Below are positions 15,299 to 64,000 of a stretch of DNA of 64,000 nucleotides, piece after piece. Source of the stretch: Schmidtea polychroa (taxonomy: Eukaryota); contig CM097885.1 in the NCBI GenBank assembly GCA_044892525.1, positions 558,001 to 622,000 on the forward strand. Direction: 5' to 3'. The position numbers were made by a program, and so were the translations under genes. The notes under the pieces are model-generated. The model was not told where the DNA came from. It saw only the letters and a list, made by a program, of their open reading frames with translations, and searched no databases. Position 1 is the first letter of the stretch. Every line of letters begins with the position of its first letter.

Positions 15299-15379
15299 TT
15301 TTTATTATAAAAAATGAATAATATAAATCTTAAAAAATAAAATGAAAACAGGGTATCCAATAAAAATTTTTTTCTAAAA

Positions 15380-22123: not shown

Positions 22124-22201
22124 TTTTTTAATAATAAAATGTCGACAATTAATTTAAGCAACTATAGCAACCTGATCTACTTTTTTAAAAATACACCCAT
22201 T

Positions 22202-22762
22202 TTATAAGTAAGAATTCTTTAACCATTTTTCTCGAGATGTTTTTTTATTACTTATAACATTAGCCACCATGCCCTCCCTTTTTAATCTTATAACCTCATT
22301 CTTTATATCTTGTATTATTTGATTTGATTTCATTATTTCTTCGTCTGTCAGGATTCCATCTTCCAAAGCTTTTAATTGAAATAAAAATAATTTAGAGATT
22401 CCTAATTCTATTGATAAACAAACTTCTCTATATAAACTTTTCTTTTTAGAAGTATAAGATAATGAAACTATTTCAGTTAAGAAACCATCAGCCACAGAAA
22501 TACTTCCAAGTATTACAGGTGCAAGAGTAACAACTGGTAAAGTTATGGGTAAAATAACTGTTAATATTGCAGATGCAAATCCTAAAGAATAATCTATAAC
22601 TTTTAAAACTGTATTCCCTTTATTCCATCTATTTTTAATTTTTTTATAATGCTTTAATAAATCTTGTAAATGTAAGGTTTCTGATTTAAATTCTTTTACT
22701 CTCATAATTTCAAGTTCTGTGGGAGCCGAGGCCTTGGAAGAATAATATCCTGATGATCTCAA
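22202..22762 (-). CDS. Predicted two-TM membrane protein, resembling the 'GasderminX'-type ORF of adintoviruses (tentative); start uncertain
   Basis: Central hydrophobic pair, upstream in-frame IYPEL...SAP, C-terminal KALEDGILTDEE. Confidence 0.55.
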   Translation of the reverse strand: MRSSGYYSSKASAPTELEIMRVKEFKSETLHLQDLLKHYKKIKNRWNKGNTVLKVIDYSLGFASAILTVILPITLPVVTLAPVILGSISVADGFLTEIVSLSYTSKKKSLYREVCLSIELGISKLFLFQLKALEDGILTDEEIMKSNQIIQDIKNEVIRLKREGMVANVISNKKTSREKWLKNSYL

Positions 22763-22806
22763 TTCTGGGTAAATTTTTTCTTCTCTTACTTCTTCCTTTT
22801 TAATAT

Positions 22807-23817
22807 TTAAAAAAATAAGACTTTATTCTTCTGAGCACCATCTGGCACCAATACTCGGATGTCAAAAGAAACTCTTGTTGAGAGGATATCTTTATACAAT
22901 TCTCTCAATGCTTTACGAACTTCATCAACATCAACCTTTTTTTCATAAAATATTAAATCTATATATTGTACAAGTGAACTAGAAAAATGAATATTCTTAC
23001 TTTTAACTTTATGTAGTCCATGTGAATGAGTATTAACATACCAATCTCCGTGTGGTAAATCATAACTAGTCATTATAACATCACCCTTTTCAAGCTTACT
23101 ATTATAATCACATTTCACAAACCATTTCATTCTTTCATTATCATCATCAAACAAAAAGAAATAAGGATCAATAATTTTTACAACCATAAAAACACCCCAT
23201 TCTTTACTGTTTGTTGTTATTAAACTTGGTTCTATAAAATGTTTATATGTATGGGGTAATAATGTTTTATTCTGTTCTAATTCAGCAGCTCTTTTTCTAA
23301 TACTATGTGTGGTGTTAATGTGTGTTCCATGAGACTCTAAATTTGAAATTCTTTTATTAAATGATGTAATCATCTCATTTATTATTTTATATATTGTATT
23401 AAATTTAGTATTCATAATTTGTTTATCTTTAGAATTTAATATAGCAGTATTTAATTTTACAACTTGTTCAGTTAACAGACTTTGTAACTTGTCAAATTTA
23501 TCATTAAATCGTTGTTCGATATTATTAAGCTTTGATTCCATTGAATCAATGTTTGTTGTTAATGAACTTTCAATTCTTGTTGTTGTTAAATCAGTAAAAT
23601 TTTTAACACCATCAACATATTTTTTATTAACTGCATCAGCTTCATCAGTTGGTAAAGATAAATCTTTTATCTTGTGTCCATTTAAATTTAAATCTCCTTT
23701 CATTGAATCACCTCTTTCATTAATATATTTATTTTCTGTTAAAGTTAATATTTCTTCTGTATTAAACCCTGTTTTTATTGTTCTACCACCTCTATTACAT
23801 GGAATATAAGAACTCAT
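22807..23817 (-). CDS. Fiber/spike-like virion protein
   Basis: GDSMKGDLNLNGHKIKDLSLPTDEADAVNKKYVD motif, then a coiled coil, an RKR/AA site and a globular C-terminus; adjacent to the penton gene. Confidence 0.65.
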   Translation of the reverse strand: MSSYIPCNRGGRTIKTGFNTEEILTLTENKYINERGDSMKGDLNLNGHKIKDLSLPTDEADAVNKKYVDGVKNFTDLTTTRIESSLTTNIDSMESKLNNIEQRFNDKFDKLQSLLTEQVVKLNTAILNSKDKQIMNTKFNTIYKIINEMITSFNKRISNLESHGTHINTTHSIRKRAAELEQNKTLLPHTYKHFIEPSLITTNSKEWGVFMVVKIIDPYFFLFDDDNERMKWFVKCDYNSKLEKGDVIMTSYDLPHGDWYVNTHSHGLHKVKSKNIHFSSSLVQYIDLIFYEKKVDVDEVRKALRELYKDILSTRVSFDIRVLVPDGAQKNKVLFF

Positions 23818-23841
23818 TTATTAATAATTTAAAATGAATCT

Positions 23842-24605
23842 TCAAACCTGTTTCAAATGTAAATACATTGAAATCTCTTCTCCATTAAAATCAATCAATT
23901 CTCCTTCTTGATTAAGAATTTTAAAATTAATATCCATTATATATTTTCTACATAAAGGTAAATAATTTGGAGGATTCATTCTTTCAACTATTTTATATCC
24001 CATAGGAACTGTGTTTGAGGGAAAGGAATATAAAACATTTGTTTGTTTACCATTATTATAAAAACCTGTTATACAATCGCAATGAATATTTATTGTGTTT
24101 GTATTTATTATTTTTATAATATTTTCTGATGTTATTATTTTATCTTCTTTTATTGTTATATCCATAGGTTTAAATCCTAAAACTGTGTAAAGAAACAATT
24201 ATCTAAAAAACTAATTTTTAAATTCTTCAAAGTCATTACACATTTTGAAGTTGGTATATCCATTTTAATTTTAATACCTTCATTTGTTTTTTTAGAAAGT
24301 ATATCATTTAAATCTTTTATCTCATATGCCCCAGGTTCTATTGTTATAATTTCTGGTTTATGCCCATCACGAGTTTGAATAGTAAATTTATTATTATCTT
24401 TAGTTATATTAAAAATAGTATTATAAGCACAAAACCATAATAGCCCCAATTCATAATTTAAATTTTGATCTAATTTAATTGAATCTTGAAAGTTTATAGT
24501 AAAGTCTGATTCTTTTGAATTTATAGATAAAGTTCTTGAATATTTATCTGACATTATGTTTACCATTTTTTTTAAATTATCTTCCGGAGGCTTGTGAAGC
24601 TCCAT
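23842..24605 (-). CDS. Minor capsid protein (penton, single jelly-roll), split by one frameshift near 24195
   Basis: FTINF..IKLD..YELGL, IEPGAYEIKDLN, VLGF, INIHCDCITG.Y.NG, NQEGELIDFNGE motifs. Confidence 0.85.
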
Positions 24606-24653
24606 TTCTTTAGTAGTAAATTCATATAGTAAAAATCCTTATAGTAAAAATCC

Positions 24654-25118
24654 TTATAGTAGAGATTCTAGATCATTATAAATTTCTTGAATTATAGATT
24701 CAAAATCCTGCGTATGCCCCTTTCCCTCTTCCTTATTCAATCTATACAAAACATATAAACTTAAAATACCACATATTTTAGTATTCAAAGGTTGAACTTG
24801 TAAAGAGTTAAAAGTATAACCATTTGGGGAATCAATCGGAGAACCCCTCAAGAGATAATCTTCAACTTCTTTAGTAGGTTTAATCCCAAAAGAATCAAAG
24901 TAGATAGATTTCTTATATATACAAACCCAATGAGATCCTTTTTCATTTGAATTTTGATAATTGATTATTATATTCAGGGGACTCTCCAGACTTGATAATT
25001 CATCATTCATTAATATTTTAATTTTTAAATTTAAATAATTTGCATAATCTTTTAAATCAAAATTTGTTTTTGCATTTATTCCAAATGTTTTTAAAAAATC
25101 TAATATTGAAGGAGTCAT
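24654..25118 (-). CDS. Adenain-like cysteine protease (maturation protease)
   Basis: GSHWVC, YFDSFG and QVQ...CG catalytic motifs. Confidence 0.93.
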   Translation of the reverse strand: MTPSILDFLKTFGINAKTNFDLKDYANYLNLKIKILMNDELSSLESPLNIIINYQNSNEKGSHWVCIYKKSIYFDSFGIKPTKEVEDYLLRGSPIDSPNGYTFNSLQVQPLNTKICGILSLYVLYRLNKEEGKGHTQDFESIIQEIYNDLESLL

Positions 25119-25140
25119 TTTGTATTTTAAAACTTCGTAT

Positions 25141-26022
25141 TTATAACTTCGTATACTTATTAAATTTATCTTTTGAAATTATTCCTTGTTTTAACAAATC
25201 TTTAGAAATCTTTAAAATATCAGAATCTAAATTATTATGTCCTGCTTTCCTTGCAGCTAATAGTTTTCTTAATTCAATAAAAAGATTGATGGGATTTGGT
25301 TTACCACCTTCACTAATTAATCCCTCTCCCTCTGTAACAACATAACCCTTTTCATTTTTATTTAAATAATTCTTTAAATCTTGAATATATTTTGCTTTAG
25401 AACTAGCTCTTATTAATCTTATTAAATTTAAATATTTTTTAATTTCTTCAACATCATCTGAAGAATATCCACAAAGTAATCTATAAAAATCATCTGTAAA
25501 TTCAAAGTCTAAATATTCATTATTATAAACATTTTGTGAATGAATACGTGATTTATTTTCTGAATTTGAATATAAAGTAAAGTTTTGTTTATTAATTGTT
25601 ATTATTTGATATCCTTCAGTATTAGTATTAAATGTGGGTCTAATTGAAGGAGGTAAATCATCTCTAATTTTAGGATCAACTTTAAGAGGTTTTGTTTTTA
25701 AAAACATTTCTTCTTCTTCCACATTAGAAATTCTTCTGCGTTTTCTTTGATTTCTTTCAGGATGGTTTTCACTGGATTCTTTTTCTTTATCCTGCCACTC
25801 TAGTTCTTTTATTTTTTGTTTTTTATCTTCTAACTCTTTAAATTTTGCTTGCTCATTGAAATCTTCCAACTCTTTTATAGCTTTAATTGTTGGCCCCTTT
25901 TGTTGTGTTATTACCTCATTTAATATTATAGATTCAGCATGTTGAGTTGTATCTTTTTTATTATATTTATCTTGTTCTGATTGTAATTTTTTTAAAAGTG
26001 CTAATCTTTCTTCATATACCAT
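25141..26022 (-). CDS. Polinton protein of unknown function
   Basis: 293-aa ORF; GEGL followed by P..L..EL..LLAARKAGHNN, a C-terminal pattern I recall from Polinton ORFs. Confidence 0.65.
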   Translation of the reverse strand: MVYEERLALLKKLQSEQDKYNKKDTTQHAESIILNEVITQQKGPTIKAIKELEDFNEQAKFKELEDKKQKIKELEWQDKEKESSENHPERNQRKRRRISNVEEEEMFLKTKPLKVDPKIRDDLPPSIRPTFNTNTEGYQIITINKQNFTLYSNSENKSRIHSQNVYNNEYLDFEFTDDFYRLLCGYSSDDVEEIKKYLNLIRLIRASSKAKYIQDLKNYLNKNEKGYVVTEGEGLISEGGKPNPINLFIELRKLLAARKAGHNNLDSDILKISKDLLKQGIISKDKFNKYTKL

Positions 26023-26044
26023 TTTAATGGTATCAAAAATGGTA

Positions 26045-26623
26045 TCATAGTTCGAAGGGCTTCAAGTATAATCCTTTACCATTTTTAGTTTTACAAAGGC
26101 ATCCATTCTTTAAAGATTTACATATTTTTTTTAAATCTTCTTTATCTTTTGAAGATAAAGATTCAGATGTAGAAATTTGATTTTTTAAAAAATCATTTAA
26201 ACCTCTACCTTTATAAGGATCAAGATAGAGACCTTTGCCCTGAGACTTTTGCCGACTCCCCTCATATGGATTAAGATAGAGACCCTTTCCAACGGACACT
26301 CCCCCTTTAGCTTGCCCTACCTTCTTCATTGAATCGATTTCAGTTTGTAGTTTTTCTTTTTCTAGGTCTGTCTTTTGAGATTCTTTAGCTTTTTGAACTG
26401 TAGTTGCAATTCCTCCAGCTAATCCAGCAGCACCTGATAAACCAGCAATGATTGCAGGTATTAAAGCAGCTAATGGAAGAATGCCACCTTCTTTAGCTTC
26501 GTGGAGCTTCGCTCTAACTTGTTCTTTTACATGTTTTCCAATAAAATATTTTTTACCATCAATTACTACTGATTTATTTTTATTTGAATTTATTAATTCT
26601 TGCAAAGATTCTTCAGTTGTCAT
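26045..26623 (-). CDS. Adenovirus pX-like core/membrane-active precursor
   Basis: GGILPLAALIPAIIAGLSGAAGLAGGIAT; repeated GKGLYLxP(Y/F). Confidence 0.7.
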   Translation of the reverse strand: MTTEESLQELINSNKNKSVVIDGKKYFIGKHVKEQVRAKLHEAKEGGILPLAALIPAIIAGLSGAAGLAGGIATTVQKAKESQKTDLEKEKLQTEIDSMKKVGQAKGGVSVGKGLYLNPYEGSRQKSQGKGLYLDPYKGRGLNDFLKNQISTSESLSSKDKEDLKKICKSLKNGCLCKTKNGKGLYLKPFEL

Positions 26624-26638
26624 TTTATAATAAACAAA

Positions 26639-27442
26639 ATGGATGTACGAAGTCCAATAATTTGGAAACCAATTTTAAATAGACATAAGAGTAAATTTAA
26701 TAATAAAGTATTTCCTGATAATTTTAGATTATTAATTGTTGGTTCTTCTGGATGTGGAAAGAATGTACTTGTTTTGAGAATGTTACATGAAGATGATTTT
26801 TTAGATTATAATAATTTAATCTTTTATTCTACAACCATAAATCAACCAGAATTACAACTTTTGAAATGTGGATTTGAAAATAAATTAACTAAAAAAGCAA
26901 TAATTGATATTTTTAAAAATCAACATAGGTGTCCTGAAGAAGTTTTTCAACCTTGTGATATGGTTGATTGGTATAAGGAAAAGATTTTAGAATCAGATAT
27001 TAGTAATAAAAATGATTATATTTGTGAAGAAGGGCAGGAGGCAATTCAAGTTTTATTCTCTAATAAACCTGAAGATGTTTTACATTGTGATTTACTTCCT
27101 AAAGATAAAAAGAATCTAGTTATATTTGATGATGTTGTTAATATGAAAAATCAAGAGATTCAAAAGAGTTACTTTACACGAGGTCGACATAATAATTGTA
27201 ATGTTATTTATATATCTCAAACATATTATGCTTTAGATAAAAATTCAATAAATAATTCCAATTGTTTTATATTTTTTAAATTAGATCGCCGTGATAAGAA
27301 TATGATTTATAATGATTTATTTTCAAATGTTGAACCTGATAAGAATATGTTTGATATGTTTGTTGATAATCATTGGAAAGAAAAATATAATTATATTTAT
27401 TTGGATAGAGAAGAAGCTGAAATATGGAAAAGTTTGTTTTAG
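26639..27442 (+). CDS. A32/FtsK-like genome packaging ATPase
   Basis: Walker A GSSGCGKN, Walker B LVIFDD, TRGRH, YISQTY. Confidence 0.95.
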   Translation: MDVRSPIIWKPILNRHKSKFNNKVFPDNFRLLIVGSSGCGKNVLVLRMLHEDDFLDYNNLIFYSTTINQPELQLLKCGFENKLTKKAIIDIFKNQHRCPEEVFQPCDMVDWYKEKILESDISNKNDYICEEGQEAIQVLFSNKPEDVLHCDLLPKDKKNLVIFDDVVNMKNQEIQKSYFTRGRHNNCNVIYISQTYYALDKNSINNSNCFIFFKLDRRDKNMIYNDLFSNVEPDKNMFDMFVDNHWKEKYNYIYLDREEAEIWKSLF

Positions 27443-27453
27443 GGCTTGTCGAC

Positions 27454-28262
27454 TTAAAAATCTGTTTTCTGTAGTTCATTATTATAAAATCTACCTAATA
27501 TTTTTTCATTATTTAAATCAAAGATGCTATATGTTATTGGAGTTATATAATGTATTTTATTTATAATAAAAATTTCATTTGTCCATTTTGCTGTGAATCC
27601 TTTTTCAAATTTATTTTATATTTAAATATTCTTACTCGGTCACCAATTTTAAACTTTGGTTTTTCAATAACATCATTTTCAATATTTACCACTTTAATGG
27701 TTTCAGGCTTCATAGAAGCATTTAAAGGTGTTAATTTTATAGAACTATGTACATCATTATTATATTCATTTACAATCTTTTGTAACAATTCATTGTTCCA
27801 TTTTTGTTTTCCAATAGCAGTAAAATATTTCCACATTTTATTTTTTAATGTTCTATTTAATCTTTCAACTACGACTGCTTTTCCTTCGTTTTCTGTTGAA
27901 TATAATTTAATATCATTTTCATTTAAAAACTTTGTAAAAACTTTGTTATAAAATTCTGTTCCTTTATCACACCATAAATATTTTGGGATTCTTTGATTTT
28001 CTTCAAATATATTTTCAAATGCTTCTGTAATAGAATATCCTGTTTTATTTTCTAAACATCTTGCAAAAGCAAATCTTGTATATAAATCTATTACAGTTAA
28101 AATTATTTTATATTTTTCAGGGTCTGATGATTTGGGCATAAAGACTAAATCTGCAGACCATGTTTGATCTTTTTCATGTACTTGAACTTTTAAATATTTT
28201 TTATTTTTTCTAAATTCATGGTGTAATTCCTTTGCATATTTTATTTCTGATTCTGTTGGGGT
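27454..28262 (-). CDS. Retroviral-like (rve) integrase; frameshift near 27617; no Met before the first catalytic Asp
   Basis: AKELH...WSADL, WCDKGTEF, VERLNRTLK; the shifted frame gives KFEKGFTAKWTNEIF...FYNNELQKTDF. Confidence 0.92.
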
Positions 28263-28858
28263 TTATAAACTAGTCTTGGCTGTACTCTCGAGGGATCTTT
28301 CAATCTCTGCTTGTTCGATAATCTTTTTATAAGCAACATCTTTTGCTTTCCTAGGAAGTCTTGCACCCATGGTGATCGGACTGTGTCCTAAGCCTATGAA
28401 AATCTTACCTTTCATTGCTAATTTAACTAGAGCTCTTTGAATCTTTTCTTGGGTTGATGGATTTTGGTTACTATTTAAATCATGTATTAAATTCACATCT
28501 GCAACATGTCTATCTCTAAGATTTGTTGAATTGTATGCAATGTCATGTTTTAAAGCTGCTTGATCAATTCTATTTATTGGTTCTTCTCCTTGTTTGGGAT
28601 TATTATTTTCATCTAATCTAATATCTAGACGTGTTCCTGGTCCAGTATAGTTGTGTTTAAATAAATGTCTTTCACCTGGATATTTTTCTGTAGTAAAAGG
28701 TTTTAATATTGAAGATGTTGTTTTTGAAGATTGCAAATCGCCTCCAGCTCGTGGAATTAGGTCACCTACTGTATGTTTTTTAGTTTTAAGATGATTTGCT
28801 TTATGATTACTTGACAATTACAAGTTTTACATCTCCAATAGGGTTTATTTAAAGACAT
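28263..28858 (-). CDS. Parvovirus VP1-type phospholipase A2 domain (PLA2X) with a frameshifted N-terminal C2H2 finger
   Basis: HNYTGPGTRL...PINRIDQAALKHDIAY; ATG at 28858 gives MSLNKPYWRCKTCNCQV, joining HKANHLKTKKH after a 1-nt shift. Confidence 0.88.
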
Positions 28859-28875
28859 TTTAAAATGTTAAAATA

Positions 28876-30168
28876 TTAAGAATCTCCCCTAACATTTTCA
28901 ATAATTGAAATCTTTCCACCATATAATTTCATTTCTATTTTCTTTTCTTCTAATATTAATGTATATACTTTAGCTTTAAAATTAGAATCCTTTGTTACAT
29001 GAAGTGTAACATCAACATTATTTATGGCTAGGCGATCATCTTGGTCTGATACATTTTTACAAAATATAGAATATAAATTTTTGAAATCTTCTAAACTTAA
29101 TTGCGGTTCAACTTTGAAATCATAACATGTTTCAATATAATTTAGATATGGGAATATGTTTTCATTATTTTCAATATTAAATTCCATTCTATTTATTGGA
29201 TAATAAGAACTATTTAATTGAATTTGGATTGTTTTTAAATTATCATCTCCAATCTTTTGAATAAATAGATTGTTATTTTTTTGGAAAGATGAATCTGTTT
29301 CTTTGAATCCAATCAAGATATATCTTGGTCGGTATGCTAAATTTGCTACCTTTATAGAATATGTTGAACCCTCTGTCATACTAAATTCACTACAGATTCT
29401 ATTTAAATAATTTACATTTATAGACTTGTTGGAATTTAATCTTTCAAGGAGTTTAATCTCAGAATGTGGGTTTAATGTCCATTCAGGTATATGTAATTCA
29501 AGTGTTGATAATTTTAATTTAGCTTTTGTATCTACAGCTCCATAGAACAATCTTTTATCACCTTCTACTCTATTACAGATGAATTCTATAAAAACATTAT
29601 GAAGTATACGATTATAGTTTTGAAGGAATCCAAACAAGTGTTTTAATTCAAAATAACCTTCAAATGTTTTAGATTTATAAAGTTCAGCTCTTTTATGGTA
29701 ACCATGGTTTACATCTAAACCATCTTTATCTAAATCCCCTTTATTAACATCAGGAATCCAACCTGTTAATTCACCATATTCGTTTTTATAATCACAACCA
29801 GTCAAAATAAAATTTAACATTGTAGAATATACTCCCGGATGCAAAACAGTTTCAATTTCTGATGATCCTAGTTTTAATCTCATGTTGGAGAATAAATTTG
29901 GAAAGAAATTATTTTCTAGGGTTATATCTTTGTTTGCTTCAATTTCTAATTCTACTTTGTAATATAATTTGGCATTACAAATATCTATTGGGTTTGATGT
30001 TTGAAGAGATTGAAAAACTATATCACCCCTACGATTTAAGTTTGCAATAGATCCTGAAGTTGGCGAGATTTTTAAAATATCATTTTTTTTAATTTCATGA
30101 GTAAATTCTTTATTATAATCAAGATTTAATTTATTTTTTTCTTGAATTTTAAGATTTATATTATTCAT
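28876..30168 (-). CDS. Major capsid protein (double jelly-roll, hexon-like), ~430 aa
   Basis: Size, beta-rich pattern, NNFFPNLFS.MRL.LG..EIE, LKHLFGF..Y, RPRYILIGF and QLNSSYYP motifs; position in the element. Confidence 0.88.
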   Translation of the reverse strand: MNNINLKIQEKNKLNLDYNKEFTHEIKKNDILKISPTSGSIANLNRRGDIVFQSLQTSNPIDICNAKLYYKVELEIEANKDITLENNFFPNLFSNMRLKLGSSEIETVLHPGVYSTMLNFILTGCDYKNEYGELTGWIPDVNKGDLDKDGLDVNHGYHKRAELYKSKTFEGYFELKHLFGFLQNYNRILHNVFIEFICNRVEGDKRLFYGAVDTKAKLKLSTLELHIPEWTLNPHSEIKLLERLNSNKSINVNYLNRICSEFSMTEGSTYSIKVANLAYRPRYILIGFKETDSSFQKNNNLFIQKIGDDNLKTIQIQLNSSYYPINRMEFNIENNENIFPYLNYIETCYDFKVEPQLSLEDFKNLYSIFCKNVSDQDDRLAINNVDVTLHVTKDSNFKAKVYTLILEEKKIEMKLYGGKISIIENVRGDS

Positions 30169-30254
30169 TTTTATATATAAAAGTTGATAAAAATAAAATT
30201 TGAAAAATAAAAATAAAAATAAAAGGGAATTCATTAAAAAAATAATTTATAAAA

Positions 30255-30476
30255 ATGATTGACTTTATTGAAAGAATGACAAATGAATTGAATGAAGTTA
30301 AACTTAAGAGAATAAAAAGAAGAGAAGAAGAACCATTAGAATACATTAAAGAGTTGGTGGTAGAGAATGAAAAGTATCGACATTTTTACATGAATGCAGT
30401 AGAAGTAGCTGAGAAAAGATTAGATAAAATAAAACAATTACAGGAAAGAATAAAAGAACTTGAATCGATTATTTAA
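30255..30476 (+). CDS. Small coiled-coil protein abutting the right TIR
   Basis: 73-aa E/K/R-rich heptad pattern. Confidence 0.55.
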   Translation: MIDFIERMTNELNEVKLKRIKRREEEPLEYIKELVVENEKYRHFYMNAVEVAEKRLDKIKQLQERIKELESII

Positions 30477-31416
30477 AAAAATGACAAAAAATCCAAACCT
30501 TGATAGTAGTGGGCTAGACTGACACAGTGGTTCAAAATGCTAGCGGTTCAAATCACATCTGAGGTTAGTTTTTTTTTCAACATAAAATAATATTAAAAAT
30601 TTGAAAATAATATTGAAAATAGTGTGGGTATCTTATATTTATAAAGTACTTGTATATTTTATTTTATTTATTTTATTTTATTTTATTTTTTTATTAATTA
30701 ATTATTTTTTAAACATAAATATGAAAAAAAAATATTGAAACGGGTGATGGTGGCGAACCGGTAATTATCGCCACCTGTCTTTCGAACACCCCCGGATCGA
30801 TTCCGGTAATGTGCACATTTATTTCTCAGTTGTTTTCGGACCTCTTTCGGATTCGCTTTCGAATTCATTTGTACTTTCGAGCAGCACACTTAAAACGCCG
30901 ATGAAATCGTATTCGAGCGAGAAGCGAATAATAAGGTGTGCTGCTATTATCGGATTGATTCTGATGTATGAGTCTGGCCAGCTTGTATATTGGAAGAGAT
31001 TCGATAAACGAAAGAGGTTGATAAATAAAAAAAATGATCCGGATCAAAAAAAACTGTTGAGGTGACAGTGAAAAAAAAAAAAAAAAAATACCACTGTCCC
31101 CTCAGAGCAGTTTTACTATTTTTCATTTATTTCTTAATTTATATAATTTAAAATCAATAATCTGATAAAGATCAAATAGCCCTCTAACTTTTTCATAATG
31201 CCATTTTTTTTTCTATTCTCTTTTTAGTTTGAAGCTTTTGAGTTTGAGGCTTTAAAGATTAAAACAGTTAGAGTCATTAAGGGTGGTTGTTTTCAAAATA
31301 TAGGGTTAAAATACTATAAAAGTATAAGTTTTAGGTTGTTTTTCTAATAGCTTAAGTGATTTGGAGGCATGTTTTGTTAGGAGGGCTGTTTTGGTTGGGT
31401 ATATAACCACACTACT
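30472..31416 (-). repeat. Right TIR of Polinton A
   Basis: Reverse complement of the left TIR, ending ACCACACTACT. Confidence 0.96.
30497..30577 (+). ncRNA. Right-TIR copy of the Pol III-like unit with an altered A box
   Basis: TAGTAGTGG replaces TGGCGCAGTGG; B box and T9 run intact. Confidence 0.4.
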
Positions 31417-31422
31417 TTTATT

Positions 31423-31868
31423 TTATGATAATTACTAATTAAAATTTTATTCAAATTGAAATATTATTGTTACAATTTACACTCTTGTTAGAATATATTA
31501 AATGTAAATGTAAAATAATAACAATAAAAAAAAATAATAATAATAAATAAAAAAATTAAATAAAAAAATTTAAATTAAAAAAAATAATAATAATTAGTTA
31601 AATAATTAATTAAAAATTAATTAAAAATTAAATAAAAAAAATCATTTAAATAACGTAAGTAATTAAAATAAAATATTAATAATTAATTAATTAATTAAAT
31701 GTAATAAATTGAAAATTAACTAAAGTAATTAAATAAAACAAAAAACATAATAAAATAATTACTTAATAAATTTAAAAAAAAAATTAAATAAAATGATTCG
31801 ATTGACCTATATTTGATCTGGACATTGGGATGACTTGAAAGTGTTCTGGAGTCCTCACTATATACTAC
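31423..31868 (+). repeat. Remainder of the family-B terminal repeat interrupted by Polinton A
   Basis: Continues the empty-site sequence; ends GTCCTCACTATATACTAC. Confidence 0.85.
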
Positions 31869-33310
31869 AACAGTTTATACGGTAAAACTGTGGAAAACTT
31901 GAAGAAACGTATAAATTTGAGATTATGCAACAAAAGCAAAAGATTTATAACTTATTGTAGTCATCCTATGTTTCGTCGTAGCATCAAGATTGCGGATGAT
32001 CTCATTGCTGTTATACTCAATAAGGAATATGTGTGCTTAGATAGACCAATGTATATTGGACAAACCATACTTGATTTATCCAAACTTCGCATGTACCAAT
32101 TTCAATATAAAGAGCTACTGAGTTATAGAGAAGAATTCAATTGTCAAATTAATATCGTAGCCGGTGACACAGATTCCTTCTTTTTAGAGTGTAAAAATGT
32201 AGATTTACGCCTACAACTGTATCCAAAAACGATTGAAGATGGGCTCTTAGATACTTCAAATTATCCAGTGACCGATCCGTTGTTCTCTGATGAAATTTGT
32301 TCTGTAATCGGGAAAGTTAAGGATGAGAATAAAGGAAATCAATATAAAGAATGGGTGTTTCTTCGACCCAAGTGCTACTCACTCCAAGGCGATAAAAACA
32401 CTCTAAAAGCCAAAGGAATAAGACTTACAAACTCTAATCTTACACATGAAGCCTATAAAAAGTGTATACTGATGGTGGAACAGTGAGTATCCCACAAAAA
32501 AGAATAGGAAGTGTCAATCATCAGTTGTATACTTTCATGACAGAAAAACGAGCTCTCCAATGTTTGGACGATAAAAGGTATTGGTACAATTGTAATGAAA
32601 GCTATGCCTACGGTCACTATAAGATTCGTCAAATGCATATTGCAACTGCTATGTCTAGAAATGAATGCAAATCGAAACAAGGACTTTAACAATTAAATTT
32701 ATGTGAATAATAAAATATATATTGTGAATTATTTGACTTCGTTAATTAAAATATGTTTTATCATTTAATAATTCATTTGTCCAATTAATTTAGATAATTA
32801 GTTTTAAGTAAGAATTATTATTTATCATGAAAAACTTTGCTTTGTTTTGAAAAATTAATGCCCATTTTATTTTAAATTAACACAGCTTTATTTTATGATT
32901 ATTACTAATTAAAATTTTATTCAAATTGAAATATTATTGTTACAATTTACACTCTTGTTAGAATATATTAAATGTAAATGTAAAATAATAACAATAAAAA
33001 AAAATAATAATAATTATAAATAAATAAAAATTAAATTAAAAAAAAATTAATTAAATAACGTAAGTAATTAAAATAAAATATTAATAAATAATTAATTAAT
33101 TAAATGTAATAAATTGAAAATTAACTAAAGTAATTAATTAAAACAAAAAACATAATAAAATAATTAATTAATAAATTTAAAAAAAAAATTAAATAGAAAA
33201 AATTAAATAAATTTAAAAAAAAATAAATAGAAATGATTCTATTGACCTATATTTGATCTGGACATTGGGATGACCTTGAAAGTGTCCTGGAGTCCTCACT
33301 ATATACTACT
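31869..33310 (+). mobile_element. polB: Family-B element right end: pPolB 3' part (31869-32689, one frameshift) plus terminal repeat ending ACTACT
   Basis: NSLYGKTVENL, GDTDS, RPKCY, DDKR motifs; terminus CTCACTATATACTACT at 33310. Confidence 0.88.
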
Positions 33311-34560
33311 AATTATAATCATAATTTTCTTTAATTTAACCCTTTATTTAATTAATTTAGCCCTTGTTTACCGAATATAGAAGTTTAAAATATAGACCAT
33401 TGATTACTTTAATTTAAAAATGTATCCCTTAATATACATAATTTCCATCTAAAATTATTTCAAAAAAATTTTTTTTCTAAAATTGTCATTGAAAAATATT
33501 TCATAAAAGTTTTCATTTAAAATTTTCATTGAAAAATATTTCATAAAAATTTTTTTTAAAAATTATCTTAAAAATTATTCCATAAAAATTTCCATCTAAA
33601 ATTACTTAAAAAATTATTTCATAAAAATTTTCATTAAAAAATTTCAATTCTCAAACACCTTCTATTATTTTGTTAATAATTTTAAAATACCGCAATGTAA
33701 TATATTAATTTTTTCCTAACCTTCCTTGATTTTGATTGGTTAGAATTTGTTCCTATAAACAATAATAATCTATAAACAATAATCAATCATTAGTCACATT
33801 TAACAAATAATTAACCTTTAAAAATGAATTCTTTAATAGAAAACGTTATGAATGTTCGAGAAAAAATTCAGGAATTTGGTAAATTTTAATTTATTTATTA
33901 ATTAATTTATTAATTAATTTAGATAATATTAATGAAGACAATTTAAAATCGAAGATTAAAGGAAATTTGAAAAGAAAAAGTAAACATAATTTTTAATTTA
34001 TTTATTTAATTAATTAATAATTTAGGTAATACGAATAAAGAGAAAAAATATGTCAATGTGTCAATAAATCGAAATGAAAATTTACAATGTAAGTATTGAT
34101 TACTTTTTATAATTTAAAGGAAATTTAATATAATTTTTTATTTAAGTAAATGTTAATATTTTTAATTTAGTAAATTTTTATTTTTTAGTAAATAAAATTT
34201 GTAAAATAATAATAATTTGCAAATTTTTGCGTAAACATTTATTAAAATCTTTCATTTAAATTATATATTTTTATTAAATTTTTATTTTATAGGTATACTT
34301 TATCCAAATTATTGTTCATCGAAAAAACATAATAATAATTGCCATTCTATAATGGAGAATTATTACACGAAAAAATATTATAATAAAACTTATTTTATAT
34401 GTCCCGTTTGTAAGACTAGTGACCCTGTAACATGTAGCGTTTTTTATAATAAACATAAAAATCATTTAGATAGGTTTAATTTTAAAAAAGATAGTGTTTT
34501 TAAAAGACCCTCAACTATAGAAAAAAATAATACAAAAAAATTAAATTAGATACTTCTTTT

Positions 34561-34805
34561 GAATCCCAGGTCGGATTAGAGGTTGAATCCCAGGCTGGAT
34601 TGTCTTTTGTTGAATTCCAGGTCGGATTGTCTTTTGTTGAATCCAATGATGGATTGGTTGTTGAATCCCAGGTCGGATTGCCTTTTGTTGAATCCAATGA
34701 TGGATTGGTTGTTGAATCCCAGGTCGGATTGCCTTTTGTTGAATCCAATGATGGATTGGTTGTTGAATCCCAGGTCGGATTGGTTGTTGAATCCAATGAT
34801 GGATT
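34561..34805 (+). repeat. 51-bp coding tandem repeat (VESQVGLPFVESNDGLV)
   Basis: CAGGTCGGATT recurs every 51 bp; fewer units in the copy at ~62325-62495. Confidence 0.9.
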
Positions 34806-35555
34806 ATTCACTTCCTTTGATTCTTGGGATGGATTAAATATAATACAAATAGGTGGAAATGTATCGACAGTACAAAGAGATTTAAGAGGTACCCATCAAA
34901 TATTAAGTTTAAATACTAGCGACTTAAATATAAAAGAAATAATATTTCCTGAACAACCAATAATAAAATTACGAGATATTATTAACGAATTAGGATCCGT
35001 CAAAATTCAATTCGGAATAACAATCGAATTTGAAAAAGACGGGTAAATAAAGGTTAATAATATCTCCAATTACGCAAAACCTTTAACTGCATCATTTTTT
35101 GATCAAGGCATTAAGGAACTAAATGAGAAAATAACTAATATTACAAAGTTAGGAAGCAATTGGATTATAAAAAATATAACAGAAATCCACTTCACTATAA
35201 CAAAAATAAGTTGGTTAAGTAGATTAAGTGGTATGAGTTTCATTGAAACACCTACTTATCTAAAAAATAAATATTGTTTAATTAATATAAGAAACACTGA
35301 TGATTCATGTTTTTATATAGCATTTTAGCTATTTTAAAATATGATGAAGTTAGTAGTTATGCTAGAAATAGGACATCGAGTTATAATTTATCCGACTTAG
35401 TATATAACCCGTTAGAATTACCTATGAAATTAAAAGACATTAGGAAATTTGAATCTAAAAATTCGGGTTTAATAATTAATGTTTTTTCATATGATACTAG
35501 CAAACAATTAACTGATAATTATGTATTAAAACATCCACATTTAGATATTATACAT

Positions 35556-37845
35556 CAGGGGTGCCCAGTAATTTTTCTAGGAGTGCTACATTCACATCCA
35601 AAATGTGTATGCGATCTACTTTTTTAATACTTACATAATATTTACCTACAATGCAATAAATTCATCACAATAGAACAAATATATGTCAAAATATGGAAAA
35701 TTAAACTAGGTAACTATTTATTATAAAAAAATGTAACTTAGGAAATCAAATTTAATGAAAATTATTGTTATATAGAACTTTTGGATGTTGATGCTCTACA
35801 TTGGGTTGAATCCACTAGATTTTTGTAGTTTGGGATATAAGTGCTAAGACAACTTCTTAGGCTGGATTCCAAATGGTCATCTGTTAATGTTGCTCGGTAC
35901 TTTGACTTAATAATTTTCATATGTGAAAATGCAGACTCACATAAATAAGTTGAACCAAAAGATGATACTAAATTTTCGAAGCATTTTTTCAAGTTTGAAT
36001 ATTTATCCTCTGATAGATATTTCCATACATTTGGTTCGGAAGATCTTGATTTAATGAAGATATCATTTTGAAGTGTGATTATTTCCATTTCAAGTATAGG
36101 GATATCCATTTTAAACAAAGTTGAAATTGAATCTGCAACAATTTCTGGCTTTATTTTTGGATTAAACGGAAAGGACATAAATGCAGCCACAATTTCAAGT
36201 TTCTTGAAGTCTTGAAAACGTCTCTCGAACTCTAAAACCAAAATTTTGATCTGTTCCGCATATCTCGTAATATTAAAGTTGACATTTTCAGATTCTTTTA
36301 ATTGTGACAACATATTTGGAAAATAACTTAAATTTTTGTCTTTTATTTTGATAATAAGTAAATGAAGCTTTTGTATAAATGCAATGATTGAACTTATCAT
36401 ATCGAATATCAATTTATCCTTACGATGTAAGTCGAGATTTAATTCATTCAGAATTGCAGTAATATCTACTAAAAATGCCAAATCCAAGAGCCAAACATCA
36501 TCTTCCAATTGCTTGAACTCATCACCTCTTGCGGCAAGGAACAACTTAATCTCAGAAAGCAAATCTCTAAATCTTTGTAAGAATTTTCCTCTACTTAGCC
36601 ACTTTACATCTGAATGCATCAGTAATTCAGCAGGACCTTCGCTATTACTTTCTTCAATTTGTAATTTGAAAAGTCGTCTCTGAAGACTTCTTGCACGAAT
36701 CGAGTTAGCAATTTTGAATGTTATTTCCATAATATCTCTCATATTCAGAATTTTAGCACACTAGGCTTGTTGATGAATAATACAGTTGTAGGAAAGAAAA
36801 TCTGGGAATTCACAATCATTCCTACAATATGCTATAAATCCGTTGTGACGCCCTGTCATAGCTGGTGCGCCATCTGTTGTTATTGATACAAGCTTACAAA
36901 TTTGGAGCTGAATGCTGTTGGCATAAGCTTTAAAATTCTGAAATATATCCTCACCTCGAGTTTTACTTTTGAGTGGTATAATTGTTAATAATTCTTCCTT
37001 CGTAGAAAAATCTTTAAAGACCATTCGAATAAAAATTATAAGCTGCGAAATATCAGCCGCATCAGTTGATTCGTCTGCTTGCAATGAAAATGCAGTACAA
37101 TTTCCTATGTCTAACATTAACTGATATTTTAAATTGGTACTTATTTCTTGGACTCTTCGTGTAACTGTATTACGGGACAATTGCATATCAGTAATAGCAG
37201 AAATTATATCTGATTTATTTTTAAAATCACAAAATAGTGATTCTGCCGCTTCTAAAAATGCTTCTTTTACAATTACTCCATCACTAAAAGATTTCTTATT
37301 TTTTGCCAGAATGTAGCTTACTCGGAAAGATGCAGCTGTAGCTGACTTTGATTTCGATGCTAGCTTCGTAAAAAATGACTGTTGAAAAAAAATGCATGTT
37401 TTCAGTTCCATGATTTTAGACTTGCGTAGTTCACTGTCAAGTGGATAATCAACTGCAAAATTCTTATGAATTGTCTTGAAATGCCTTTCCAAATTCCCTC
37501 TTTTTGGTAATGAAATAGTAGCTTTACAAATTAAGCAACAACATTTACCTTTAATCATTACAAAAAAGTACTCCTTCTCCATTTCTTCGCTATAATGATA
37601 AGTCTTGGCTTTTCTATTTAGCATTTTTTATTTAGCATTTTTTTATTTAGCATTTTTAAACAAAATTAATTTAACAAAAAAAGCTTAAGAAAATTTTTCA
37701 CTTTGTTACACAAAAATTTAAGTATAAAACAGAAATTTTATATAAAATCTAAATTTATATATAAAATATTTTTTTTATGAAGATCTACTAAAAAATCCTT
37801 CGCGATCTACCGGATAGATCGCGATCGAACTTATGGGCACACCTG
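35556..37845 (-). mobile_element. hAT (Buster/SPIN-like) DNA transposon, 2,290 bp
   Basis: TIRs CAGGGGTGCCCA / TGGGCACACCTG; 8-bp TSD TTATACAT (35548-35555, 37846-37853) fits nnnTAnnn. Confidence 0.96.
35768..37624 (-). pseudogene. hAT transposase (GTF2IRD2/SPIN-like), ~618 codons, one premature TAG at 36761-36763
   Basis: CLIC...LERHF..H, ADESTD, TTDGAPAM, CIIHQ, WLSRG and FGSTYLCESAFS motifs; both ORFs are in the same frame. Confidence 0.93.
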
Positions 37846-39456
37846 TTATACATCGTTCCTAAGTTTTAAATGGAACTGTAATTAATTTACTACTATTAAA
37901 TAAAGGAAACAATTTCCATTACGTTGCTATAAGTAATTTAAATAGGTTACTGAATTGTGGTATCAACACTAGTTGTCCTACACGCATACGTTCATTATGG
38001 TGCCATCGGTGTTTGAATGGGTTTAGGTATAAACAAGCACTGGAAAAACATGAAATATTATGTAAACGTAATCAATTAGGAACAACTCTTTACACTTTCC
38101 CTCAAAATAAATTATTGCAGTTTACTGACTGGTCGAAAACAGTAACTCCTCCTTTTGTAGTTGATGCCGATTTTGAGGCTATTTTACCTTCTGATAATGT
38201 TCATTTCCAACGACACATGACAATATCTGCTGGTCTTTTACTTGTAAATAACTTTGACGGATCTAAATCTTATCAACAGTTCATAGGTTTAGATTGCGTC
38301 GAGAGTTTTTTAAGTGTTATAGAGGATATAGCATTAAATAAGTTTCTTCCTTTTTATTATAAAATGGGTAGCAAACCTATGATTAAATTAACGAAAATTG
38401 AACAACGTCAATTTGTTAGTGCATCTGTTTTTTATCTTTGTATGAAATCTATCGTTGATCCTGTTAGAGATCACGATCATTTTACGGGGAAATACTTGGG
38501 TGCAGCTTGTAGCACATGTAACAAAAATAAGAAAATAAATAAAATTTTGCCTATCGTATTTCACAACTTGAAGGGATACGATATGCATCATATACTTAAA
38601 TACGGATTAAATAAATTTAGAAATTGGACTTTAGGTTGCATCCCAATAACGACTGAAAAAATTATTTCTTTGATTGCGCATTTAGGCAAAAGAATTGATT
38701 CTTATCAATTCATTGATTCTTATCAATTTGTTAATGATTCTTTAGCTAAAGCAGTCAAAACTTTGAATTCTTAGCCTTTTACTAATTCTGTTTTTTCTGG
38801 CACTATAGTTTCTGAAAAAGGAATCTTCCCTTATAATTTCGCTACATCTTTAGATATTCTCCAAACTACTTATGAATTACCACCAATCTGGGAGGGTGTT
38901 ACTGAGCTTTAGTATGAAAAAGCTCAGGAGATTTGGGTAGAAACTAATTGCCTAATTTTATTAGATTATATGATGATCTACTTAAAACTTGATTGTTTTC
39001 TTTTGGCTGATTTCTTTCATCAGTTTCGGTTGAAATCTATTGCTCACAATAGATTGGAACCATTGAATTATTTCGGAATTCCAGGTATGTCTTGGTCTTC
39101 TGCATTAATGTCTTTAAATGAACCAATTGAGCTCATAACTGAAAACGAAATGTTTAGCTTTTATGAGGGTGGAATAAGAGGCGGTATTACTTTTGTGAAT
39201 TAGCATTACGTAAAAACCGATGAGAACACCGAGTTACTTTATATAGATATTAATAATCTTTATGGTTGGGCTTTAAGTCAATCATTACCTTGTGGTGAAT
39301 TTAGTTGGGTTCTTGATGGATTTGATTTAATAATGGATGAAAGTAGGAATTTAAATCTTGATTCTTTGTCTTATGGATACACTCTTGAAGTTGATCTTGT
39401 AATTTCTTCTGAGCTAAATGAGAAGTTGGATGATTTCCCTGAAGCAGCTGAAAAAT

Positions 39457-39965
39457 TGGGCATGTAAGATTAAGTGAATTAAATATTGGAGAAAATGTTG
39501 GAGAAATTGTTGGAGAAAATGTTTGGGAAATTGTTGGAGATGAATTTGATGAAAATGTTGGAGAAGATTTTGGAGAAGATGATATCGATATCGATGACGT
39601 TATTTTGTCTGATGAGGACTAATTTTATTAAATAAAAGTTTATATATATACATTTGTTATTTTTTTGGTAAATATTTATGTTTTTTATGTGTCTAGTTAT
39701 TTTTATGTGTTTAGTTAATTTTTTATGTGTTGTATAGTATTTGGTTGATATATTATTATTATTATTTCTATTATTATTTCATAAACATTTCCAATAAAAG
39801 TTACCATTGAAAAATATTTCATTTCAATTGTTAATAAATTTAAAAATCTTACTTTAATTTACTTATTTAACATTAATTTTTTACCATTGATTACTTAATT
39901 TTAAAATTTGGACCTTAATTAACTTTAATTTAATTTTTTAGAACCGTAATTTAGTTATTTGTGCT
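39457..39965 (+). repeat. Extra copy of the family-C pPolB C-terminus and 3' region, followed by a restart of 39219-type sequence at ~39966
   Basis: 39457-39660 resembles 41197-41410; 39966-40203 resembles 39219-39456. Confidence 0.85.
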
Positions 39966-41370
39966 GATGAGAACACCGAGTTACTTTATATAGATATTAA
40001 TAATCTTTATGGTTGGGCTTTAAGTCAATCATTACCTTGTGGTGAATTTAGTTGGGTTCTTGATGGATTTGATTTAATAATGGATGAATGTAGGAATTTA
40101 AATCTTGATTCTTTGTCTTATGGATACACTCTTGAAGTTGATCTTGTAATTCCTTCTGAGCTTCATGATAAGTTGGATGATTTCCCTGTAGCAGCTGAAA
40201 AAATGAAACCTGCTGGGTCTAAGGTTAAAAAATTATTATTAACTCATCTTCCAAAATCTAATTATGTGATTCATTGGAGATTATTAAAATTATATTTGGA
40301 ACTTGGTGTTAAAGTAACACGTGTAAATAGGGGTGTAAGATTTAAGCAATCTCCAATTTTTAAAAAATATATAGATACAAATACAGAATTAAGGTCAAAA
40401 AGCATAAATAATTTAGATAAAAATTATTATAAATTGTTAAATAACAGTTTATACGGCAAAACAGTTGAAAATTTAAAGAGAAGAATGAATCTTCGTCTTT
40501 GTACAACTGCCGGTAAATAAGTAACATATTCTTCAAAGCCGACTTTTAAAAAACTATTAAAATAGACGATAATTTAATTGCGGCATTAGTGAATTCAGAT
40601 TCTATATGTTTAGATAGACCAAGTTACATTGGTCAATCTTTACTTGATCTATCTAAACTTAGAATGTATGAATTACAATATATTATATTGAATATAAGGA
40701 TCTAGAATCATTTCGCAATGAGTTTAATAATAAAATTAATATCGTTGCAGGTGATACAGATTCTTTTTTCCTCGAAGTTAATAACTGTAAACTTGAGGTT
40801 CTTTTACCTGCAATGATTCGAGATAATTTATTACATACTTCCAATTACAATAGTTGTCATTCCTTATATAGTAAGAACTTTGATTCAGTCATTGGAAAGT
40901 TCAAAGACGAGAATAAAGGTCTTAAATATAAGGAATGGGTTTTTCTTAGACCTAAATGTTATAGCTTGTTGGGTGATGAGGAAACAAAAAAGGCTAAAGG
41001 TGTAACATTGAAAGGTAGTGACATAAAACATCAGTCATACCTGGATTGTTATAACACTAACCAGATTTTTTCGGTTCCTCAGACTAAAATAACAAGGAAA
41101 AATCATCAAATATTTACAATTAAAAATACTAAAATAGCACTAACTAACAAAGACGACAAAAGGGTTTGGGTGGGAAAAAATACTAGTCTTGCATATAGGC
41201 ATGTAAGATTAAGTGAATTAAATATTAGAGAAAATGTTGGAGAAATTGTTGGAGATGAATTTGATGAAAATGTTGGAGAAGATGAGGAAGAATTTATTGA
41301 AGATGTTGGAGAAGATTTTGGAGAAGATGATATCGATATCGATGACGTTATTTTGTCTGATGAGGACTAA

Positions 41371-55558: not shown

Positions 55559-55650
55559 ATACTCCGAGTTTATCCGACAAAATATTCTGTCCCCCTATGG
55601 GTATTGCTAGCAAGGGTACTGGTCACATTCAACATGTCGCAAGAGTATAT
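55559..55650 (+). mobile_element. Third terminus of the same TIR family
   Basis: Reverse complement of ~54385-54470. Confidence 0.8.
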
Positions 55651-55734
55651 TAATCAGTTAGAAATTCTTAGGTAATTTAGTGAGATGATCACAAATTCGT
55701 GAATATTTTAAATGTAACTTTACACTTATGTCAA

Positions 55735-61400: not shown

Positions 61401-61580
61401 TTTAGCGTCAAAATGTGTTTTTAAAATAAATTTTAATTTTAAAATACCGCAATGTAATATATTAATTTTTTTCTAACCTTCCTTGATTTTGATTGGTTAG
61501 AATTTGTTCCTATAAACAATAATAATCTATAAACAATAATCAATCATTAGTCACATTTAACAAATAATTAACCTTTAAAA

Positions 61581-63245
61581 ATGAATTTTTTAATAGAAAA
61601 CGTTATGAATGTTCGAGAAAAAATTCAGGAATTTGGTAAAATTTAATTTATTTATTAATTTATTTATTAATTAATTTAGATAATATTAATGAAGACAATT
61701 TAAAATCGAAGATTAAAGGAAATTTGAAAAGAAAAAGTAAACATAATTTTTAATTTATTTATTTAATTAATTAATAATTTAGGTAATACGAATAAAGAGA
61801 AAAAATATGTCAATGTGTCAATAAATCGAAATGAAAATTTACAATGTAAGTATTGATTACTTTTTATAATTTAAAGGAAATTTAATATAATTTTTTATTT
61901 AAGTAAATGTTAATATTTTTAATTTAGTAAATTTTTAATTTTTAGTAAATAAAATTTGTAAAATAATAATAATTTGCAAATTTTTGCGTAAACATTTATT
62001 AAAATCTTTCATTTAAATAATATATTTTTATTAAATTTTTATTTTATAGGTATACTTTATCCAAATTATTGTTCATCGAAAAAACATGATAATAATTGTC
62101 ATTCTATAATGGAGAATTATTACACGAAAAAATATTATAATAAAACTTATTTTATATGTCCCGTATGTAAGACTAGTAACCCTGTAACATGTAGCGTTTT
62201 TTATAATAAACATAAAAATCATTTAGATAGGTTTAATTTTAAAAAAGATAGTGTTTTTAAAAGACCCTCAACTATAGAAAAAAATAATACAAATAAAAAA
62301 ATTAAATTAGATACTTCTTCTTTTGAATCCCAGGTCAGATTAGAGGTTGAATCCCAGGCTGGATTGTCTTTTGTTGAATTCCAGGTCGGATTGTCTTTTG
62401 TTGAATCCAATGATGGATTGGTTGTTGAATCCCAGGTCGGATTGCCTTTTGTTGAATCCCAGGTCGGATTGGTTGTTGAATCCAATGATGGATTATTCAC
62501 TTCCTTTGATTCTTGGAATGGATTAAATATAATACAAATAGGTGGAAATGTATCGACAATACAAAGAGATTTAAGAGGTACCCATCAAATATTAAGTTTA
62601 AATACTAGCGACTTAAATATAAAAGAAATAATATTTCCTGAACAACTAATAATAAAATTACGAGATATTATTAACGAATTAGGATCCGTCAAAATTCAAT
62701 TCGGAATAACAATCGAATTTGAAAAAGACGGGTAAATAAAGGTTAATAATATATCCAATTACGCAAAACCTTTAACTGCATCATTTTTTGATCAAGGCAT
62801 TAAGGAACTAAATGAGAAAATAACTAATATTACAAAGTTAGGAAGCAATTGGATTTTAAAAAATATAACAGAAATCCACTTCACTATAACAAAAATAAGT
62901 AGGTTAAGTAGATTAAGTGGTAGGAGTTTCATTGAAACACCTACTTATCTAAAAAATAAATATTGTTTAATTAATATAAAAAACACTGATGATTCATGTT
63001 TTTTATATAGCATTTTAGCTATTTTAAAATATGATGAAGTTAGTATTTATGCTAGAAATAGGACATCGAGTTATAATTTATCCGACTTAGTATATAACCC
63101 GTTAGAATTACCTATGAAATTAAAAGACATTAGGAAATTTGAATCTAAAAATTCGGGTTTAATAATTAATGTTTTTTCATATGATAATAGCAAACAATTA
63201 ACTGATAATTATGTATTAAAACATTCACATTTAGATATTATAAAT
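61581..63245 (+). pseudogene. Second copy of the family-C pPolB 5' region (predicted exons 61581-61635, 61680-61736, 61783-61845, 62050 onward)
   Basis: Same splice sites as the first copy; frame open to TAA at 62735. Confidence 0.8.
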
Positions 63246-64000
63246 CAGGGGTGCCCACTAATTTTTCTAGGAGTGCTACATTCACATCCAAAATGTGTAT
63301 GCGATCTACTTTTTTAATACTTACATAATATTTACCTACAATGCAATAAATTCATCACAATAGAACAAATATATGTCAAAATATGGAAAATTAAACTATG
63401 TAACTATTTATTATAAAAAAATGTAACTTAGGAAATCAAATTTAATGAAAATTATTGTTATATAGAACTTTTGGATGTTGATGCTCTACATTGGGTTGAA
63501 TCCACTAGATTTTTGTAGTTTGTGATATAAGTGCTAAGACAACTTCTTAGGCTGGATTCCAAATGGTCATCTGTTAATGTTGCTCGGTACTTTGACTTTA
63601 TAATTTTCATATGTGAAAATGCAGACTCACATAAATAAGTTGAACCAAAAAATGATACTAAATTTCGAAGCATTTTTTCAAGTTTGAATATTTATCCTCT
63701 GATAGATATTTCCATACATTTGGTTCGGAAGATCTTGATTTAATGAAGATATCATTTTGAAGTGTGATTATTTCCATTTCAAGTATAGGGATATCCATTT
63801 TAAACAAAGTTGAGATTGAATCTGCAACAATTTCTGGCTTTATTTTTGGATTAAACAGAAAGGACATAAATGCAGCCACAATTTCAAGTTTCTTGAAGTC
63901 TTGAAAACGTCTCTCGAACTCTAAAACCAAAATTTTGATCTGTTCCGCATATCTCGTAATATTAAAGTTGACATTTTCAGATTCTTTTAATTGTGACAAC
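63246..64000 (-). mobile_element. Duplicate copy of the hAT element, cut by the window edge; extra frameshift
   Basis: CAGGGGTGCCCA at 63246; transposase C-terminus. Confidence 0.93.

Follow-up and report, generated by a model that had tools for sequence, protein, structure and literature searches.

The core genes of Maverick elements are reported to be intronless in vertebrates and nematodes in the available parts of two sources (PMC8097293; 10.1101/2022.07.12.499685), and the first of these, in the portion available, describes searches in which Mavericks and adintoviruses are scored as intact only with long, intronless core ORFs (PMC8097293). In excerpts from other sources, the terminal inverted repeats (TIRs) of Mavericks are given as 100-1500 bp in length (10.1101/2023.08.22.554363), and the architecture of the polymerase pPolB as TP-vOTU-Exo-Palm (10.1101/2024.03.18.585575). 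Introns and splicing have been described, again in the available portions of the cited papers, for adenovirus, in which the long terminal exon of the E2B mRNAs for Ad-pol and pTP is joined by splicing to three short exons at the 5′ end (PMC11304566), for Maverick-like elements of dinoflagellates, which contain introners (10.1101/2025.03.18.643946; PMC12166617), and for cryptophyte PLVs, which carry group I introns (PMC12220804). In planarians, knockdown of PIWI leads to de-repression of Polintons (PMC8532177). In our literature search, which had Kapitonov and Jurka 2006, Repbase and supplements outside its scope, we found neither a report of spliceosomal introns in the pPolB or integrase of animal Mavericks nor a report of a polymerase-only palindromic Maverick.

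The window analysed in this study is a stretch of 64,000 nucleotides of Schmidtea polychroa (G000:C1:558001-622000; AT-rich 781 Mb genome, four large contigs) and is crowded with Maverick/Polinton pieces. The preliminary description of this window had proposed an ATG at 33824 followed by three GT-AG introns of phase 1, with ATTGG and TATAAA upstream. After re-reading of the sequence, all these positions were found to be correct (ATTGG at 33735-39; TATAAA at 33754-59 and 33771-76), and the translation of the joined exons was, as claimed, stop-free and in frame with ORF 34352. The features of the locus and of its duplicate are as follows.

31839..33309, + strand: fragment of a family-B element, namely its 3′ part with the right terminus, upstream of the leader; the terminus matches L053 by eye
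33735..33776, + strand: promoter-like boxes, ATTGG at 33735-39, TATAAAC at 33754-60 and 33771-77 (putative promoter role)
33824..33878, + strand: leader exon 1, beginning with ATG, 55 nt
33879..33922, + strand: intron 1, 44 nt, phase 1; donor rank 1 of 31, acceptor rank 3 of 30
33923..33979, + strand: leader exon 2, 57 nt, basic and lysine-rich
33980..34025, + strand: intron 2, 46 nt, phase 1; acceptor strongest, donor weak
34026..34088, + strand: leader exon 3, 63 nt; its final base is the first base of a conserved Cys codon
34089..34292, + strand: intron 3, 204 nt, phase 1; position, phase and both sites kept in families C and D
34293..41370, + strand: main pPolB exon with Cys/His motifs, repeats, a putative TP, and vOTU, exonuclease and palm domains; broken here
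35556..37845, - strand: hAT DNA transposon inside the pPolB copy, 2.3 kb, with the 8-bp target duplication TTATACAT at 35548-55 and 37846-53
61434..64000, + strand: second, duplicate broken copy; ATG at 61581, TAA at 62733-35, the same hAT from 63246

The flagged copy is dead, with a frameshift near 34530, a stop at 35044-46, the hAT insertion and further breaks downstream. In the 62109 copy the frame reaches one TAA (62733-35) and pPolB then resumes in the same frame, in agreement with the preliminary description. The retention of the leader at +27,757 adds no support: the six splice sites and the ATG do recur there, but without evidential weight, because the identical hAT insertion in both copies marks one as the duplicate of the other. 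The leader splice sites are likewise retained in 30 of 30 fetched loci, and this conservation was discarded as evidence since the loci are 97-100% identical and too alike for site retention to have any power; the modelled leader is damaged in four of the 30 (two frameshifts, two lost ATGs).

The window also contains, at 14358-31416, a canonical Maverick of another clade with pPolB, ATPase, integrase, a PLA2-like gene and a double jelly-roll MCP; a tandem duplication of 2.4 kb lies within its pPolB (15852-18290 / 18286-20724). Another copy of this Maverick, in which a palindrome of family A (the family of the flagged locus) is inserted, has an uninterrupted 1437-codon pPolB frame; thus intron-free and apparently intron-bearing Maverick clades coexist in this genome. 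Two RVT_1 reverse-transcriptase ORFs in the window (8968-10731 and 11788-13578, - strand) belong to ordinary retroelements.

Sister families of the flagged locus were found by a genome search using distant homologs as queries. The amino acid identity to the open family-A frame P0001 is 85% for family C and 57% for family D. The length of intron 3 differs among families A, C and D (204, 1238 and 965 nt, respectively), and the introns of C and D are unrelated in sequence. In all three families, the donor is AAT/GTAAG, the acceptor is AG/GTATAC, the sequence ILYPNYC follows downstream of the acceptor, and the codon split by the intron is TGT (Cys). The three families share 20-29 of the first 30 exon bases, versus 17-19 of the last 38 AT-rich intron bases. 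Conservation of splice sites in more distant copies, which had been put forward as a check of the leader, was thereby observed for the donor, acceptor and phase of intron 3 in families C and D. The unspliced frame has Gly at the junction position where the spliced form gives Cys, and this junction Cys is the first residue of a C-x5/6-C-x4-H-x3/5-C motif, which is uninterrupted in family B and in P0007, a homolog from the databases; the N-terminal Cys/His motif is probably zinc-binding. The candidate 42-nt exon at 34189-34230 was not upheld, because its AG/GT borders are present but its inclusion would change the conserved junction Cys to Arg. From this comparison we are nearly certain that intron 3 is a spliceosomal intron of the pPolB gene. 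Judged from the alignments, it is an old intron, common to families A, C and D, and the introns are a property of a Maverick clade, not of one copy.

Three further observations were made around these genes. The 1238-nt pPolB intron of family C holds an antisense, apparently multi-exon ORF (L046:~3414-3850, - strand), of which an 86-aa piece gave no Pfam match. The leader exons and pPolB N-terminus of family D (L047:1826-2039, 3236-3900) repeat the motifs D-D-V-V-F-I and E-V-I-V-I, which we take to resemble SUMO-interacting motifs. A tandem array at G000:C1:258474524-258571874 (- strand) consists of ~1.1 kb units, each with the intron 3 acceptor and the start of exon 4, giving at least 57 listed matches.

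Introns 1 and 2 are without homology anchor, and leader exons 1-3 gave no match to the leaders of families C and D (55-140 of 500 shuffles equally good). The GC content is 4.5-9.8% in the three introns versus 17.5-25.5% in the leader exons. A splice matrix was trained only on 13 introns from other families, all modelled in the same analysis and some of them by eye (family B introns 1-2 and the upstream intron of family C). When the region 33700-34540 was ranked with this matrix, the three leader acceptors took ranks 1-3 of 30 AGs and donors 1 and 3 took ranks 1-2 of 31 GTs, while donor 2 was weak (score 3.0, outside the top 10). A stop-free chain with one intron appeared in 221 of 1000 dinucleotide shuffles and one with at least two introns in none of the 1000, with significance overstated by a lenient null in which the AT-block structure is also destroyed. 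Introns 1 and 2 resemble each other with a score reached in 0 of 500 shuffles; the idea that exons 2 and 3 are duplicates was rejected, 45 of 500 shuffles being equally good.

The best-surviving alternative, that only intron 3 is real and that exons 1 and 2 are chance AT-poor patches or 5′ UTR with translation starting elsewhere upstream, would agree with the low score of donor 2, with the lack of leader conservation between families, and with the leader of family C, which is a single coding exon plus a probable UTR intron. We consider it improbable, since every other AG ranks below the three acceptors, the two-intron chain was absent from the shuffles, and the chain begins at an ATG 50-90 nt downstream of the TATA/CCAAT-like boxes, of which the ATTGG-containing box is common to the flagged locus and family B. 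Leader exon 3, in addition, has no in-frame ATG, and family D has a similar multi-exon coding leader, stop-free with five introns (exon GC 29-40% vs intron GC 4-18%) and partly duplicated, exons 3/4 and introns 2/3 being alike (0 of 500 shuffles). Introns 1 and 2 are thus, in our estimate, probably real. Four sequencing runs (three guessed to be RNA, one probably DNA) were mapped to L036:1700-6400: the leader was nearly uncovered in the guessed-RNA runs, and with this near-nil leader coverage none of the 15 joints listed, out of 109 from the four runs, matches the three leader introns. One X6 contig extends 27 nt into intron 3, where the bridging rule needed 31 letters.

The family B pPolB, with 54% amino acid identity to family A, is unreadable as one frame. 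After excision of GT-AG introns of 52, 47 and 43 nt, it gave a nearly gap-free alignment to P0007 over TP/vOTU, and these three internal introns sit where families A, C and D have none. Two further upstream introns of family B were modelled by eye only, and its first coding exon was not found, a candidate being a 4-nt ATG micro-exon upstream of acceptor 3195 (L043:3079-3195). In the family C integrase, a 42-nt GT-AG intron containing an in-frame stop splits TDLG/KEF. An 11-nt direct repeat spans both ends of this intron (L048:7526-7581), as would be expected if the intron was gained by tandem duplication or break repair. Modelled introns are thus present in the pPolB of families A, B, C and D and in the integrase of family C, in contrast to the intronless core genes of Mavericks as described. 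The introns have the GT-AG ends and T-rich acceptors of the U2 type. Frame restoration, for which intron 3, the three family B introns and the integrase intron were compared with homologs, was obtained for all five. The pPolB and integrase genes of this Maverick group very probably carry ordinary host-type introns. The phase is 1 at 13 of 13 modelled coding intron positions, five of which are anchored by homology. Since 51% of the G bases of the ORF lie at codon position 1 and 0.51^5 is ~0.03, the phase-1 excess is only modest. A special mechanism for the phase-1 bias was considered and set aside, as codon-position G content accounts for much of it.

An active introner transposon striking integrated elements could be proposed as the source of these introns, given that introners populate Maverick-like elements of dinoflagellates in the available part of that report (10.1101/2025.03.18.643946) and that the integrase intron is flanked by the 11-nt direct repeat. 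This origin appears unlikely, because the similarity between introns of different families does not exceed what their composition predicts (20-31 of 500 shuffles as good for the three cross-family pairs compared) and no inverted termini were seen in the introns by eye. Slightly less credible still is the capture of leader exons and introns from a host gene fused to pPolB, as raised in the preliminary description. Intron-containing host cargo is carried by nematode Mavericks according to the accessible text (10.1101/2022.07.12.499685), and the leader does differ between families. Captured host exons are, however, superfluous, because intron 3 interrupts a motif codon of pPolB itself and predates the families, and because the leaders of A, C and D, not detectably alike, appear to have grown by local duplication (introns 1/2 in A; exons 3/4 and introns 2/3 in D); capture would also leave the introns within pPolB and integrase unexplained. 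Least probable is the absence of any splicing, with pPolB starting at Met 34352 and the upstream pattern a coincidence: this in-frame Met is a possible start of a leader-free protein, is followed by a 1270-codon open frame in open copies and has an equivalent from which the homolog P0002 is annotated, but the homology of A, C and D ends exactly at the acceptor AG, 20 codons before it, these codons are conserved, and neither the family B pPolB nor the family C integrase can be read without intron removal. The original proposal of a spliced pPolB gene, unusual for Polintons because core Maverick genes have been described as intronless, is thus supported by comparison, strongly for intron 3 and moderately for introns 1 and 2, and we infer splicing itself from these sequences.

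Adenoviral E2B leaders contain a three-residue coding exon. The E2B unit resembles the present gene in encoding a related protein-primed polymerase behind a multi-exon 5′ leader. Its leader exons serve several genes in common and are for the most part non-coding, whereas those described here appear coding; the introns here, moreover, are host-like in their shortness and are found within the conserved core as well. Compared with Maverick/Polinton elements of the animal adintovirus type, likeness was found in the vOTU Cys/His residues, the polymerase motifs, the AG-rich termini and the 6-bp target duplication. In contrast to the intronless core genes and 100-1500 bp TIRs of the accessible descriptions, pPolB and integrase carry predicted GT-AG introns here, and arms of ~6-7 kb fill nearly the whole element including the gene. 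Introners of dinoflagellates are alike in being spliceosomal-type introns within integrated Polinton-like elements; in the sections available, they are copies of mobile families, mostly inserted post-integration, whereas the introns here have no relation to one another, one of them is kept across families, and they are passed on together with the element.

Palindromy was inspected in three elements of family A, one of family B and one of family E. The family A element is ~13-14 kb long. In the three loci read whole, a centre of ~1 kb separates arms of 5.4-6.7 kb that are inverted copies of each other, and both arms carry promoter, leader and an outward-pointing pPolB. Intact AGTAG ends and 6-bp target duplications (GTCAAA, AGAAAT) were seen in two of these elements; the third, on C2, has an interrupted right arm. 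The arms are 99.4, 99.6 and 98.9% identical within the three elements, and those of the C4 element are 93.6-95.5% identical to those of the other two; being more alike within than between elements, the arms are kept alike inside each element. A fully open 1305-codon pPolB frame is present in two of the three, the C4 element having stops, and no other ORF of at least 120 codons was found inside them. Genes for capsid, packaging ATPase and protease are absent, and so is the integrase, which family C has; without integrase, family A is a non-autonomous derivative, not an autonomous Maverick/Polinton. Among the best 36 full-length matches, 20 form divergent pairs within 20 kb, none is convergent and 12 are stop-free; among 40 leader matches, 16 are in divergent pairs and again none is convergent. 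The genome contains at least 1575 leader candidates, a bound of uncertain meaning. Near a family-A element, an inverted pair of repeat-rich DNA (G000:C3 ~30379900-30392000) has 5.4 kb arms of 99.2% identity.

The family A pPolB retains all the catalytic motifs of vOTU, exonuclease and polymerase. Matches to PF03175 on window pieces and family B, together with the motifs in P0001, point to a protein-primed family B polymerase; the identity to the canonical Maverick pPolB of the window is 28% over 1148 aa. The dN/dS ratio is 0.10 between A and C (1110 codons) and 0.11-0.12 between subfamilies of A. The family-A pPolB is under purifying selection, and therefore both polymerase genes would be in use. 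When IMG/VR was scanned with alignment A1, a single distant element with an intron-free pPolB ORF came up (28% identity), and no close relative among free viruses.

The family B element (14.6 kb; target duplication TAGTGT) has the same palindromic build, with 473 of 473 compared arm bases identical. Centre and promoter of A and B are 80-94% identical in DNA, versus 54% amino acid identity in pPolB. The centre of the A palindrome begins and ends with AGTAGTATGATTGG, the flanks being inverted, not direct, and matches, as does the centre of the B palindrome, the terminus of family E, a gene-less 14.3 kb palindrome (G000:C3:119555124-119569473; L050+L051) with arms 93% identical, AGTAGT ends and the duplication ATATTT; pieces of family E lie in the window at 53225-56637. 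Family C represents a complete Maverick: it is 17 kb long, is flanked by the target duplication TATAAT and has pPolB at its right end, pointing outward. Its ATPase, PX and adenain match Pfam and it carries the integrase, while the putative MCP and two putative minor capsid ORFs, without Pfam match, were named by position and resemblance. Family C also carries a TBP-like gene (L048:5295-5807, - strand; PF00352, E 5e-16) head-to-head with the ATPase.

Protein-primed replicons of linear form give rise to copy-back or snap-back defective genomes, and fold-back at short inverted repeats gives rise to large palindromes. In the elements of families A and B, likewise, one end and the genes next to it are present twice, inverted about a short centre that is bounded by short inverted repeats and lacks target duplications there; the difference is that these elements are integrated between target duplications and have reached high copy number as a transposon family. 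Fold-back is the most likely origin of the palindromes.

Taken together, a model of a spliced pPolB leader and selected fold-back palindromes has a good chance of being correct as a whole. The leader would be the true 5′ end of pPolB in a Maverick clade transcribed in the host nucleus, where the host spliceosome would join the exons. Splicing would add ~58 basic, low-complexity residues, perhaps a nuclear localisation signal, and complete the first Cys of the putative zinc motif that precedes the terminal-protein, vOTU, exonuclease and palm domains. The other introns may have been gained separately in each family, those of the leader partly by local exon-intron duplication and the internal ones at G/GT-type sites. 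Families A and B would be non-autonomous fold-back derivatives, with right terminus, pPolB and promoter inverted-duplicated around the ~1 kb centre, which is itself the end sequence of another Maverick-like element: had a small element of type E, bounded by short inverted sequences, been located upstream of pPolB, the displaced single strand could have folded back and copied the right end. Since A and B keep termini and polymerase, they probably use protein priming to replicate their DNA once it is excised, and borrow integrase in trans from complete elements such as family C. The arms may be re-copied from each other during replication; chromosomal gene conversion is another process by which they might be homogenised. 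We give even chances to the broader proposal that one Maverick lineage both turned to host-style splicing with repeated gain of phase-1 introns and spawned a separate class of self-replicating, integrase-less palindromes, which have the selected polymerase in duplicate as their sole gene, swap polymerases on a shared chassis and parasitise complete Mavericks in the manner of defective-interfering genomes.

New in this study are the predicted internal introns of pPolB, the integrase intron and the double-polymerase palindrome. As the rule for intactness demands intronless ORFs, it would class spliced lineages such as family B, or the integrase of family C, as decayed, and the N-termini would be annotated wrongly. 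The presence of introns in both pPolB and integrase would tie the life cycle of these elements to nuclear transcription, and the families may offer dated, independent intron gains with an intron-free outgroup, a rare test of the origin of spliceosomal introns. The polymerase-only palindromes, in hundreds or thousands of copies, may likewise serve as a natural test of the panhandle model of protein-primed Polinton replication, which predicts homogenisation of the arms.
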